A DNA stretch of 64,000 nucleotides from Escherichia coli (GCF_050920415.1 NZ_CP169309.1), one strand, 5' to 3'. Positions 19,593 through 27,891 are shown, counted from the first letter of the stretch. Numbers and translations are program-made. The notes: generated by a model from the sequence alone, not told the origin.

Positions 19593-19669
19593 TGGCGGAA
19601 CGGACGGGACTCGAACCCGCGACCCCCTGCGTGACAGGCAGGTATTCTAACCGACTGAACTACCGCTCC
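19593..19669 (-). tRNA. aspV: tRNA-Asp (GUC)
   Basis: The reverse complement matches, as I recall it, the 77-nt E. coli tRNA-Asp sequence (GGAGCGGTAGTTCAGTCGGTTAGAATACC...CCGTTCCGCCA). Confidence 0.97.
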
Positions 19670-19801
19670 GCGTTGTGTTCCGTTGGGAACGAGGCGAATA
19701 TTACGGATTGCCTCCCCCTTCGTCAATGGTTTTTCTCATCTTTTGAATCGTTTGCTGCAAAAATCGCCCAAGTCACTATTTTTATCGCCTTTCACAGATA
19801 A

Positions 19802-20533
19802 TTAAGCCCGCCAGAGGCAGCTTCCACCCTTCTTCTGCACCAGATCAAGACGGGCTTCATGTGCTGCAAGCTCTTCATCTGTCGCAAAAACAACGCGTAA
19901 CTTACTTGCCTGACGCACAATGCGCTGAATTGTTGCTTCACCTTGTTGCTGTTGTGTCTCTCCCTCCATCGCAAAAGCCATCGACGTTTGACCACCGGTC
20001 ATCGCCAGATAAACTTCCGCAAGGATCTGGGCATCGAGTAATGCCCCGTGCAGCGTTCGTTTACTGTTATCTATTTCGTAGCGGGCACATAACGCATCGA
20101 GGCTGTTGCGCTTACCGGGAAACATTTTCCTCGCCACCGCAAGGCTATCGGTGACCTTACAGAAGGTATTGGTCTTCGGAATATCGCGCTTAAGCAACGA
20201 AAACTCGTAGTCCATAAAGCCGATATCGAACGCTGCGTTATGGATCACGAGCTCCGCGCCGCGGATATAGTTCATGAACTCATCGGCTACCTCGGCAAAC
20301 GTGGGCTTATCGAGCAAAAATTCATCGGCAATACCATGTACGCCAAAGGCTTCCGGATCCACCAGCCGATCGGGTTTGAGATAAACATGGAAGTTATTGC
20401 CCGTCAGGCGACGGTTCACCACTTCAACGGCACCAATCTCAATGATCTTGTGGCCTTCATAGTGCGCACCAATCTGGTTCATACCGGTGGTTTCGGTATC
20501 GAGAACGATCTGGCGTGTAATTGCAGTGCTCAT
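19802..20533 (-). CDS. dnaQ: DNA polymerase III epsilon subunit (proofreading exonuclease)
   Basis: 243 aa from the [17 protein letters not shown] start (the listed ORF adds 3 codons); recognised E. coli DnaQ sequence. Confidence 0.96.
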
Positions 20534-20597
20534 AGCGGTCATTTATGTCAGACTTGTCGTTTTACAGTTCGATTCAATTACAGGAAGTCTACCAGAG

Positions 20598-21065
20598 ATG
20601 CTTAAACAGGTAGAAATTTTCACCGATGGTTCGTGTCTGGGTAATCCTGGACCCGGGGGTTACGGCGCTATTTTACGCTATCGCGGACGCGAGAAAACCT
20701 TTAGCGCTGGCTACACCCTCACCACCAACAACCGTATGGAGTTGATGGCCGCTATTGTCGCGCTGGAGGCGTTAAAAGAACATTGCGAAGTCATTTTGAG
20801 TACCGACAGCCAGTATGTCCGCCAGGGGATCACTCAGTGGATCCATAACTGGAAAAAACGTGGCTGGAAAACAGCAGACAAAAAACCAGTAAAAAATGTC
20901 GATCTCTGGCAACGTCTTGATGCTGCATTGGGGCAGCATCAAATCAAATGGGAATGGGTTAAAGGCCATGCCGGACACCCGGAAAACGAACGTTGCGATG
21001 AACTGGCTCGTGCCGCAGCGATGAATCCCACACTGGAAGATACGGGCTATCAAGTCGAAGTTTAA
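20598..21065 (+). CDS. rnhA: Ribonuclease HI
   Basis: 155 aa from [23 protein letters not shown]; the listed ORF extends upstream in frame; divergent from dnaQ as I recall for K-12. Confidence 0.96.
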
Positions 21066-21784
21066 GCCTGTGGTTTACGACATTGCCGGGTGGCTCCAAC
21101 CGCCTGGCGAATTCGTGGCTTGTTTTTACTCTGTTTCATCGGATTTAGCGTTAAAGGAATAGTCCGTTTCCGGGCGACAATAAGTTGTAAGCAACCAAGC
21201 GCAGGAATATGCGCATTCAATAGTTTTCCACCGTGTTTGTTCCACGGGAGAACGTGGAAACGGCTGGCGTGCAGCACTTCAAAATTCAACAAAGAGAGCC
21301 AGTCCAGTTGCCGCATCAGAGTAAACATCCGGCTGTTATAGGGCGATGTTTTTCGCAATACCGGCACAAGTTTGCGTAATCCCATTAAACTGATGGGATT
21401 GAAGCCGCTAATGACCAACCAGCCATCATCAATCAATACCCGATCGGCTTCACGTAATAATCGATGCGGATCGGTGCACCACGGCAATGTATGTGCCAGT
21501 AGACAAACATCAACGGATTTATCGGCAAAAGGAAGATGAAGTGGGTCCGCCTGCACCTGGACGGGCATTCCTTGCGCAGAAACATTCACTTGATGAGAAA
21601 CCGCGCACGCTTCGCAATTGATTTCTGCGCTTAAATTGCCAATCTTAAGCAGATGAAAACCATACATTTTAGTGAACCACGGGTTGAGCTGGCGCTCCAG
21701 CGCTTTGCGATAAAGCTCTCCCCAGGGCAAATCGCCCCAGCAATCAGGAGCCACGACAGTTTGAGGGACTCTTGCCGGTTTCAT
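21062..21784 (-). CDS. yafS: SAM-dependent methyltransferase YafS
   Basis: 240 aa from the [11 protein letters not shown] start; synteny between rnhA and gloB. Confidence 0.88.
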
Positions 21785-21817
21785 CACAACCTTCCGTTTC
21801 ACACTGAGAGGTAATCT

Positions 21818-22573
21818 ATGAATCTTAACAGTATTCCCGCCTTTGATGACAATTACATCTGGGTTTTGAATGATGAAGCAGGTCGCTGCCTGATTGTCGA
21901 TCCCGGAGACGCAGAGCCAGTATTAAACGCCATTACCGCCAATAACTGGCAACCGGAGGCCATATTTCTCACTCACCATCACCACGATCACGTTGGCGGC
22001 GTAAAAGAACTGGTGGAAAAGTTTCCGCAAATTGTGGTGTATGGTCCACAAGAGACACAAGATAAGGGAACAACACAGGTAGTCAAAGATGGCGAAACTG
22101 CCTTCGTTTTGGGGCATGAATTTAGTGTAATTGCCACACCGGGTCACACTTTAGGACATATCTGTTACTTCAGTAAACCTTATCTATTTTGCGGCGACAC
22201 GCTGTTTTCTGGTGGGTGTGGTCGGTTGTTTGAAGGGACACCATCACAAATGTATCAATCACTTAAAAAGTTAAGTGCGTTACCTGACGATACATTGGTA
22301 TGTTGTGCTCATGAATATACGTTATCAAATATGAAGTTTGCTTTGAGTATTCTTCCGCACGATTTGTCCATAAATGATTATTATCGTAAAGTTAAGGAGT
22401 TACGGGCAAAAAATCAAATAACACTACCCGTAATTCTGAAAAATGAGCGGCAAATTAATGTTTTTTTAAGAACGGAAGATATTGATTTAATTAATGTAAT
22501 TAATGAAGAAACATTATTGCAACAACCTGAAGAGCGTTTTGCATGGTTAAGGTCAAAGAAAGATAGGTTCTGA
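21818..22573 (+). CDS. gloB: Hydroxyacylglutathione hydrolase (glyoxalase II)
   Basis: 251 aa; metallo-beta-lactamase motif THHHHDH; recognised GloB. Confidence 0.95.
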
Positions 22574-25698: not shown

Positions 25699-25938
25699 TT
25701 TTGACTTTGAAACCTCTATTACGTCAACCCTTCCGCACTCGGGAAGGTTCTACTGTTATAGGGATTTTAGCTCACTCTTTCAACGAGCAATTGTATATTG
25801 TTATGTAAGCAAGTGCTTACACCGGTCAGAAATTTGCTCATTATTGAGAATATTAAATCGGATGACATATCACGCATCCTGATGGTTTAATGACAAATAA
25901 ATTCAAAATATCTCATCTATTTTGCAACAGGAGCAAAA

Positions 25939-26853
25939 ATGAAAGCCACGTCGGAAGAACTCGCCATTTTTGTTTCGGTCGTCGAAAGCGGCAGCTTTAG
26001 CCGGGCAGCGGAACAATTAGGGCAAGCAAACTCAGCGGTAAGCCGGGCGGTGAAAAAGCTGGAGATGAAACTTGGCGTTAACCTGCTTAATCGGACCACG
26101 CGGCAACTTAGCCTGACAGAAGAAGGCGAGCGTTATTTTCGCCGCGTACAGTCAATTTTGCAGGAGATGGCAGCGGCAGAATCAGAAATTATGGAGACGC
26201 GTAATACACCGCGTGGACTGTTACGGATCGATGCCGCAACTCCAGTGGTGCTGCACTTTCTGATGCCGTTAATTAAGCCTTTCCGTGAACGCTATCCGGA
26301 AGTTACTTTATCGCTAGTCTCCTCCGAAACGATTATTAATTTGATCGAAAGAAAAGTGGATGTCGCGATACGCGCTGGTACGTTAACGGATTCCAGCTTA
26401 CGTGCCAGGCCATTGTTTAACAGTTATCGAAAAATTATCGCCTCCCCTGATTATATTGCCCGCTACGGCAAGCCAGAAACTATTGACGATTTAAAGCAAC
26501 ATGTTTGCCTGGGATTCACTGAACCCGCGTCTCTCAATACCTGGCCAATAGCCTGTAGTGATGGGCAATTACATGAAGTGCAGTACAGTTTGTCATCTAA
26601 TAGTGGCGAAACGCTGAAACAGCTTTGCCTGAGTGGCAACGGGATTGCGTGTTTGTCCGACTATATGATCGACAGAGAAATCGCTCGCGGAGAATTGGTG
26701 GAGTTAATGGCAGACAAAGTGTTGCCAGTGGAAATGCCATTCAGTGCAGTCTATTACAGCGACCGTGCGGTAAGTACGCGCATCCGGGCTTTTATCGATT
26801 TCCTTAGCGAGCATGTAAAAACAGCTCCCAGAGGAGCTGTCAGAGAGGCTTAA
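25939..26853 (+). CDS. yafC: LysR-family transcriptional regulator YafC
   Basis: 304 aa; N-terminal helix-turn-helix ([32 protein letters not shown]); divergent from yafD. Confidence 0.92.
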
Positions 26854-27653
26854 TCCCATTCAGGAGCTAGACCTTCCGGGCTAACCAGGCGGTCGTTGCA
26901 ATCCAGTGCGGCGATCGCTTTTTTATCTTCGGCATCAAGCTGTAAATTTTGTGCCTTAAGATTACTCTCCAGGTTTTCACGTTTAGTAGAAGAAGGAATT
27001 ACTGAGTAACCTTCCCCCATAGCCCACGCCAGAATCACTTGTGCCGGAGTCGCATTGTGTTTAGCTGCAATACGAGCAATAACCTCATCTTTCAGGGCAT
27101 TCCCATATGCCAGCGTCATATAGGAAGTAATATGGATGCCGTGCTGTTTAGCCCAATCGACTACTTTACGGTTTTGCAGATAAGGAGAGAGTTCAATCTG
27201 GTTGGTAGCGATATTTTCAGCGCCAACAGCAGCAATCGCTTTTTCCATCAATGGGATCGTGAAGTTGGAAATACCGATCTCACACGTCAGACCTTGTTTT
27301 TTGGCTTCCAGCAGCGCCTGCATAAACTCTTCAACAGAGACTTCATCGTTTGGTGACGGCCAGTGGATTAGCGCCAGATCAACATAATCGGTACGCAATT
27401 TTTGCAGACTCTCTTTCAGACTCGGGATCAGTTTGTCTTTGCTGAGATTTTCAATCCAGATTTTAGTGGTGATATAGAGTTCATTACGAGGCACGCCACT
27501 TTCTGCAATCGCCTGACCTACTGCGGCTTCGTTATCATAGATTTGTGCGGTATCAATTGCGCGATAACCAAGTTCAAGCGCCGTTTTCACAGATGAAATA
27601 ACAACGTCGTCTTTCAGACGAAAAGTACCTAAACCAAATGCAGGGATAGCCAT
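26850..27653 (-). CDS. dkgB: 2,5-diketo-D-gluconate reductase B (aldo-keto reductase)
   Basis: 267 aa; recognised DkgB/YafB sequence ([16 protein letters not shown]...). Confidence 0.95.
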
Positions 27654-27774
27654 AATATGCCTCTTTTAATGCTATGTTCGTTAACTGAGATGATTATGGA
27701 CTTTAGACTGTTGCGGAAAAAGGGCATAAAATGCAGAGGATTTTTGCGATTTTGGCAATAATAGAAATACAGAC

Positions 27775-27801
27775 GAAAAAAAACCTCGAGCGTTAACTCG
27801 A
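27775..27801 (-). terminator. Rho-independent terminator at the end of the rrnH-aspU transcript
   Basis: Minus strand AAGAAGCCTCGAGTTAACGCTCGAGGTTTTTTTT: hairpin plus T-run immediately downstream of aspU. Confidence 0.8.
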
Positions 27802-27814
27802 GGCTTCTTAATAA

Positions 27815-27891
27815 GTGGCGGAACGGACGGGACTCGAACCCGCGACCCCCTGCGTGACAGGCAGGTATTCTAACCGACTGAACTACCGCTC
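27815..27891 (-). tRNA. aspU: tRNA-Asp (GUC)
   Basis: 77 nt, identical to the aspV copy at 19593-19669; lies downstream of the 5S rRNA. Confidence 0.97.

Follow-up and report, generated by a model that had tools for sequence, protein, structure and literature searches.

Identical tRNA-Asp genes and the type VI secretion island between aspV and yafV in Escherichia coli

The tRNA-Asp pair and the adjoining island

We analysed 64,000 nucleotides of an Escherichia coli chromosome (NZ_CP169309.1, assembly GCF_050920415.1; this whole stretch is called the window below), which carry two tRNA-Asp genes, aspV and aspU, and, next to aspV, part of a genomic island encoding a type VI secretion system (T6SS) and the lipoprotein gene yafT. 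A sequence-only reading of the window had taken the identity of the two tRNA genes, and the position of the island beside one of them, as agreeing with tRNA-proximal acquisition. The explanation that we consider probable is that two ordinary tRNA-Asp paralogues stand beside an ancient aspV-yafV island, fixed in the chromosome and without a surviving signature of site-specific integration.

Four tRNA genes are found in the window by ARAGORN, two of them called as tRNA-Asp with a GTC anticodon. These two lie in direct orientation, both on the minus strand, with a start-to-start spacing of 8,223 bp, and they agree at 77 of 77 nucleotides, with an identity that extends 0 nt beyond either gene end:

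19593..19669, minus strand: aspV, tRNA-Asp(GTC), a stand-alone gene downstream of dnaQ with its 3' (CCA) end at 19593, toward the island (ARAGORN, RefSeq annotation of a near-identical genome, K-12 position)
27816..27892, minus strand: aspU, tRNA-Asp(GTC), the distal gene of rrnH, 77/77 identical to aspV (ARAGORN, sequence comparison, annotation, K-12 position)

The earlier reading was right to describe two identical 77-nt tRNA-Asp genes on one strand about 8.2 kb apart, and right to name them aspV and aspU (by position in the near-identical genome and by K-12 gene order); the coordinates that it gave for aspU, 27815-27891, are displaced by one base and delimit a span that is not identical to the first copy. 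The minus strand of the window corresponds to the plus strand of K-12, in which aspU follows rrfH and aspV follows dnaQ; the gene order of the window agrees with this, on the opposite strand, and its rrnH operon reads 16S, Ile, Ala, 23S, 5S, Asp (aspU), followed by dkgB. The window is about 100% identical to E. coli strain MFDS1022581 over positions 1-20000 and 99.965% identical over 17970-64000.

The island extends from the 3' end of aspV to yafV and measures 47,564 bp in the near-identical genome NZ_CP169399.1; 19.6 kb of it lies in the window, and the far boundary is outside it, about 28 kb beyond position 1 on the left, where the island adjoins yafV in that genome. Its parts within the window are the following:

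1..18136, plus strand: T6SS core, in-window part, with tssC (cut by the window edge), tssE, tssF, tssG, tagH, tssJ, tssK, dotU/icmH, tssH, vasI, tssA, tssM, vasL and hcp (RefSeq annotation of NZ_CP169399.1, open reading frames [ORFs], GC content)
18478..19263, minus strand: yafT, an AT-rich, hypervariable lipoprotein gene, the first on the island side of aspV (ORF, annotation)

Beyond position 1 follow tssB, hcp, three vgrG genes, PAAR genes, modules for the effectors Tae4 and Tle1, the insertion sequences (ISs) IS2 and IS21, a group II intron, ISAs1 fragments and a gene of the DUF2859 / PFL_4695 type, and then yafV. PGAP names in the near-identical record give the core genes as tssA, B, C, E, F, G, H, J, K and M, dotU/icmH, two Hcp, three VgrG and PAAR. 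By this core gene set the cluster is a predicted T6SS, its gene names being taken from annotation alone and matching the ORF sizes in the window. Base composition marks the island as foreign, with about 56% GC in the T6SS core and 38-41% in the yafT region against about 49% for the backbone. At the DNA level yafT is 82.7% and the yafT-aspV spacer 75% identical to K-12, compared with 97.5% for the adjacent backbone; the whole segment of yafT and its upstream spacer (18478-19592) is AT-rich, at 38-41% GC, and hypervariable, and the YafT protein matched no Pfam family. At megablast level, 577 complete genomes contain at least 80% of the window's first 20 kb.

The island abuts the aspV copy only, as had been noticed before: yafT and the T6SS genes lie beside 19593, and aspU is followed by a terminator and dkgB. 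The other features around the two tRNA genes are:

19697..19726, minus strand: promoter-like site upstream of aspV (TTGACG, 17 nt, TAATAT), a candidate by consensus match alone
19802..20533, minus strand: dnaQ, the backbone gene upstream of aspV, on the conserved side of the junction (ORF, annotation)
27778..27809, minus strand: terminator hairpin and U-run of aspU, at the end of rrnH and followed by dkgB (fold -18.5 kcal/mol, z = -4.3); no island lies here

Three neighbouring observations stand apart from the island. Whereas the rrnH spacer of the window (31242-31436) and of K-12 holds tRNA-Ile and tRNA-Ala, that of E. coli AVS0456 (31678-31753 of locus L005) holds tRNA-Glu; spacer types have been exchanged between rrn operons. 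The methyltransferase ORF at the yafE position (24050-24820) has 771 bp here and in other strains, compared with 624 bp for K-12 yafE. Outside the window, an apparently intact lateral flagellar (Flag-2) cluster lies beyond yafL (NZ_CP169399.1, 4070000-4097000, locus L002), with a cytosine methyltransferase and a type II restriction endonuclease paired between flgA and flgM and a HicAB module at its edge.

Identity of the two tRNA-Asp genes

The identity of the pair is uninformative because the tRNA-Asp genes of E. coli all share one sequence. The 77-mer occurs in 16,280 copies in 5,425 of 5,426 complete E. coli genomes (median three per genome), and 5,427 of 5,428 records have a best tRNA-Asp match of at least 99% identity. 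The third copy, aspT, lies between the 5S gene of rrnC and trpT, and is identical in the one strain compared (C10). Set beside the K-12 genes aspT, aspU and aspV, the window pair is the same in position and sequence, with no difference. Two direct tRNA-Asp copies 7-9.5 kb apart are found across the Enterobacteriaceae, and the arrangement is old and conserved, with no mark of a recent event, since the pairs are identical in 29 of the 32 other species that have both an aspU-position and an aspV-position gene on one contig. The three non-identical pairs belong to Citrobacter (loci L019, L031 and L034) and show a compensatory change in the aspV acceptor stem, C5-G69 to T5-A69.

The window pair therefore consists of two ordinary paralogous E. 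coli tRNA-Asp genes, not a chance repeat, and its identity reflects neither a recent duplication nor an insertion event and is irrelevant to the argument for integration. We picture aspU as the last product of the rrnH transcript and aspV as a separate gene after dnaQ, with the single sequence common to all E. coli tRNA-Asp genes kept constant by selection and probably by gene conversion. That the identity might instead stem from a recent duplication, or from ongoing recombination linked to the island (for example, if the 8.2-kb segment were mobile or amplifiable), is extremely improbable. Perfect direct repeats of 77 bp are long enough for RecA-dependent exchange, and some E. coli genomes have four tRNA-Asp copies; against this, the identity ends exactly at the gene borders, the same two-gene layout with mostly identical pairs holds family-wide, the interval includes dnaQ and rnhA, and the one rearranged genome that we inspected (C10) had been reshuffled by ISEc1 and not by tRNA recombination. 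This strain, which lacks the aspU-dkgB junction, had been a candidate tRNA recombinant, its tRNA match proving to be aspT; apparent two-piece matches of 27.9 kb, which hinted at an aspU-aspV rearrangement, were likewise rejected, as an artefact of match joining in which the tRNA piece hit aspU. A single tRNA-Asp match was seen in E. coli CUVET25-1155 (NZ_CM172034.1, 4562191-4562267), without a flank match on the dnaQ side or the island side; this is probably an assembly gap and possibly a rearrangement.

The aspU gene also bears on the idea that identical tRNA genes serve as integration targets. Its junction with dkgB is intact in 5,322 of 5,426 genomes (98%), and aspU, although it has the sequence of aspV 8 kb away, is essentially never an insertion site; the tRNA sequence alone therefore does not direct insertion.

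The aspV-yafV slot and its junctions

Within E. coli, the slot between aspV and yafV takes several forms. A yafT-type flank follows aspV in 4,124 of 5,426 genomes (76%), and in 757 (14%) the site is empty, with yafV 98-104 bp from aspV and the ancestral terminator between them. A third flank type, in 288 genomes (5%), leads into an island of about 95 kb of the PAI-aspV (pathogenicity island) type with a CP4-like module, cdiA and pic, and a further type carries the remnant of a differently organized T6SS, with an ImpA gene first, after the ancestral terminator (strain CFSAN064036, locus L092, 7100-12050). K-12 is a deletion derivative that retains yafT and ISAs1 debris. At the far end, the junction of yafV, an ISAs1 fragment and the DUF2859 gene is whole in the window strain and in the PAI-aspV strain PAR, and is present up to the ISAs1 fragment in K-12.

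On the tRNA side, homology to unoccupied sites stops 0-7 nt after the CCA end, which places the island directly at the 3' end of aspV. The flank found there, which we call class C, is common to the window, K-12, E. whittamii and E. albertii, so that this junction is shared within the genus:

19535..19592, minus strand: class C 3' flank of aspV, with a small hairpin (19572-19587) and a strong hairpin with a U-run (19535-19569; fold -23 kcal/mol, z = -5.5)

The strong hairpin, which was missed by a simple terminator scan and is clear on folding, probably terminates aspV. The ancestral aspV terminator is a different sequence, CTATTCAGAAAGCCTGAATCAGnAATGATTCAGGCTTTCGTCGTTT (in short form, CTATTCAGAAAGCCTGAATCA..TGATTCAGGCTTTCGTCGTTT), which directly follows the CCA end and is kept in 60 of 78 species and in the empty sites of E. 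coli. It is found nowhere in the window strain or in other island-bearing strains, the far boundary included, and we therefore rejected the possibility that it had been displaced to the far boundary by the insertion.

To follow the slot across the Enterobacteriaceae, we used the loci of 80 species, fetched with DnaQ as the anchor, 78 of which had enough downstream sequence. The backbone order dnaQ-aspV-yafV-(ivy)-fadE-lpcA holds in all 80, and the diverse cargo separating aspV from yafV ranges from none to more than 10 kb; the slot is empty (yafV within 300 bp of aspV) in 19 of the 78. In 42 species the cargo lies beyond an intact terminator, and insertion there was accordingly not at the tRNA end. 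The empty sites of E. coli share the 45-nt terminator and the adjacency of yafV with Citrobacter, Klebsiella, Enterobacter, Kluyvera, Trabulsiella and others, and because this terminator could not be regenerated by deletion of the island, the island is a genuine insertion when compared with the ancestral state of the family.

A third kind of 3' flank, class B, reads CTATTCAGGGCCATGTTATTAATTAACATGGCCCTTTT, then TTTTTCGGTATGCCAT, with GTATGCCAT repeated in E. coli PAR (locus L006, about 19900-20000). We met it in 14 of the 78 species and in the 288 E. coli genomes mentioned above, with differing cargo behind it (Salmonella pathogenicity island [SPI] 20, fimbrial operons, the CP4-like module), and it may represent a conserved terminus of an element family that targets tRNA-Asp. 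The loci in which it stands directly after the CCA end of aspV are as follows:

L006 (PAR), L014, L021, L025, L028, L033, L036, L045, L049, L066, L068, L075, L079, L081, L083: class B flank directly after the aspV CCA

Other T6SS genes were met in the same slot. A metagenome-assembled genome labelled as uncultured Pseudocitrobacter (CAJYVI010000048; locus L057, 9586-19452) has T6SS genes with 93-96% DNA identity to those of the window, compared with 81% for the rnhA-dnaQ backbone and 78% for yafT, and they sit after an intact aspV terminator of the Pseudocitrobacter type; the case is either a transfer between genera into the same slot or a chimeric contig. The lineage with ImpA/TssA first also follows the ancestral terminator, and its TssF and TssH are 26% and 42% identical to the window proteins; besides the remnant in CFSAN064036, it is intact or more complete in loci L010, L011 and L028 (other Escherichia and Citrobacter amalonaticus).

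We searched for the scars that site-specific integration leaves. The partial direct repeat of the tRNA-Asp 3' end that the sequence-only reading had envisaged at the far boundary is missing: in 88 kb of the near-identical genome, comprising the whole island and both flanks, a search with exact 12-mers, with segments as long as 30 nt allowing 7 mismatches, and with blastn-short recovered no copy above chance, but only the tRNA itself and chance-level matches of 10-14 nt. The same held for about 135 kb of strain PAR, including its PAI-aspV of about 95 kb, and in the 10 kb downstream of aspV a repeat of at least 13 nt from the 3' part of the tRNA was found in 0 of 78 species. An integrase remnant is equally lacking: none is annotated in the 47.6-kb island, and the unnamed genes at both its ends contain no recombinase domain by Pfam, a full six-frame profile scan of the island not having been run. 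The tRNA-adjacent ORFs examined in the species loci resemble regulators, transporters and other ordinary cargo, none of them integrase-like. Large plus-strand ORFs next to aspV in loci L082, L083 and L088, considered as integrases, resembled on inspection by eye an aminotransferase, a porin or a membrane sensor protein and not a recombinase, and the DUF2859 / PFL_4695 'integrative and conjugative element (ICE) protein' at the yafV end is no recombinase; homologues of the latter were absent from K-12 (ykfM/yafU included) and from the 80 species loci. The CP4-like element at aspV in PAR has a truncated integrase and no repeat, and hence offers no positive control for integrase-mediated insertion at this site.

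Route of entry, age and relation to known islands

Both the age of the event and its route we infer from these comparisons. The T6SS/yafT island would have come to fill the aspV-yafV slot, hypervariable across the Enterobacteriaceae, before E. coli, E. whittamii and E. albertii diverged. That E. coli shares the tRNA-side junction with the latter two species points to an ancient acquisition, and E. whittamii is colinear with the window at 93.4% identity in the backbone and 90.8-92.7% in the island, which fits vertical inheritance from before the species split. On entry, the ancestral aspV terminator would have been replaced by one of the island's own, and the island would now supply the 3' end of the aspV transcription unit. 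From that time it would have been a settled part of the chromosome, reshaped by IS and Rhs elements and by homologous recombination; the remnant left in K-12, the exchange for a PAI-aspV and the ISAs1 fragment next to yafV may serve as examples. We lean, with some reserve, toward an entry in which the tRNA sequence had no directing part; that the target was the slot and not this sequence is suggested because aspU is unused, because many insertions in other genera lie beyond the terminator, and because the Pseudocitrobacter T6SS follows an intact one.

What stands of tRNA-proximal acquisition is that the island abuts the tRNA gene, is foreign in GC content, and is absent from 14% of E. coli and from many relatives; neither a repeat nor an integrase accompanies it, and the identity of the tRNA pair adds nothing. 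Classical tRNA-targeted integration, toward which the earlier reading pointed, would mean that a P4-like integrase of a mobile island acted at the 3' end of aspV, the tRNA gene was rebuilt from a copy carried by the island, and the integrase and the far repeat were later lost. This is possible, although we hold it to be the less probable course. It would account for a junction so close behind the CCA end, for an ancestral terminator that is lost and not displaced, for the foreign GC content and for the mobile debris at the far end (ISAs1 fragments, the ICE-type protein, the group II intron), and aspV is a recognized hot spot, with several different T6SS clusters there in Salmonella (PMC2907695) and other lineages. 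Against it stand the lack of an integrase and of a tRNA 3' repeat in the island or its flanks, the empty state of the identical aspU in nearly all genomes, the intact terminator ahead of the cargo in 42 species with no repeat in any of the 78, and the Pseudocitrobacter T6SS, 93-96% identical and behind an intact ancestral terminator. Several points nevertheless weigh against an old insertion into the slot as we favour it. All three flank types part at one point, about 7 nt after the CCA end (common sequence CTATTCA), and the ancestral terminator is wholly gone in island-bearing strains; together this also fits what a crossover inside the 3' end of the tRNA gene would leave, and is equally explained by a conserved trailer sequence plus replacement. 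Because ISAs1 has altered the far end, the lack of an attR-like repeat there counts as weak negative evidence. The far boundary is readable in E. coli only, the contigs of E. whittamii and E. albertii ending or reaching the flank limit before it, and the age estimate is based on three Escherichia species.

Another alternative is that the island is ancestral at the locus, the empty sites in 14% of E. coli being secondary deletions, with no acquisition at aspV at all. The island and its tRNA-side junction do occur in three Escherichia species, with a divergence matching that of the backbone, and K-12 is clearly a deletion derivative with yafT and ISAs1 debris. We nonetheless consider this very unlikely: the empty sites of E. 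coli carry the family's 45-nt terminator and the yafV adjacency, which a deletion could not recreate and which are absent from island-bearing strains; the GC content of the island differs from that of the backbone; and the conserved terminator contradicts an ancestral island at the level of the family. Of what the earlier reading had named as speaking against it, half holds: the island has neither repeat nor integrase, and it is ancestral within Escherichia, since E. whittamii and E. albertii have the same junction, but derived relative to the family. There is also an outside chance that the slot is a dedicated landing pad through which genera swap complete T6SS clusters with no integrase involved. 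T6SSs of three or more unrelated lineages have been found between aspV and yafV (the E. coli yafT type, the ImpA-first type, and SPI-20 in S. arizonae), and the Pseudocitrobacter contig joins a cluster of the E. coli type to a backbone of much lower identity; if true, a landing pad would imply an unrecognized site-directed route, for which the conserved 7 nt after the CCA end might be a candidate tie.

Our preferred reading, an old island fixed in the aspV-yafV slot, concerns a locus that is already familiar. In classical tRNA-linked islands, such as the high-pathogenicity island (HPI) of Yersinia at an asn tRNA gene, or the locus of enterocyte effacement (LEE) and SHI-2 at selC, a P4-like integrase is accompanied by flanking direct repeats. 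The window island resembles these in its adjacency to a tRNA 3' end, its deviating GC content and its strain-variable presence; the integrase gene and the duplicated tRNA 3' segment that they possess were searched for in the window island and not found. The link between aspV and T6SS clusters is known and has been published for several E. coli strains: PAI I of LF82 is an aspV-linked T6SS island (PMC2941450), enterohaemorrhagic E. coli EDL933 has an aspV-associated T6SS cluster of 37 kb (PMC5363993), GI-16 ('T6SS2') of the avian pathogenic strain IMT5155 lies between yafT and yafV (PMC4232414), and strain ECC-1470 has 'T6SS/1' of subtype i1 at aspV (PMC5422975), the numbering of T6SSs varying between papers. 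These islands occupy the same slot, downstream of aspV between yafT and yafV, and are alike in gene content (hcp, clpV/tssH, vgrG, two ImpA-family genes and a variable end rich in Rhs and IS elements), and nothing essential differs in the window strain, which has its own IS2, IS21, group II intron and effector modules. In Salmonella, aspV has been called a known insertion hot spot that carries SPI-6 or SPI-20, the latter without obvious flanking direct repeats (PMC2907695). There too a T6SS cluster lies beside the same tRNA gene, and we recovered the S. arizonae locus (L014); its T6SS lineage differs from that of the window, with TssC 43% and TssH 46% identical to the window proteins, and its aspV flank is of class B, not class C.

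The overall significance of these findings is small. For annotation, the island can be taken to start 0-7 nt beyond the aspV CCA end (19593) on the tRNA side, the terminator of aspV probably derives from the island, and the far boundary, at yafV, lies outside the window. The presence of several unrelated T6SS clusters in one slot across genera extends the report from Salmonella. Identity between tRNA paralogues says nothing about integration, and an island next to a tRNA gene can be a genuine, ancient insertion that bears no mark of site-specific integration.

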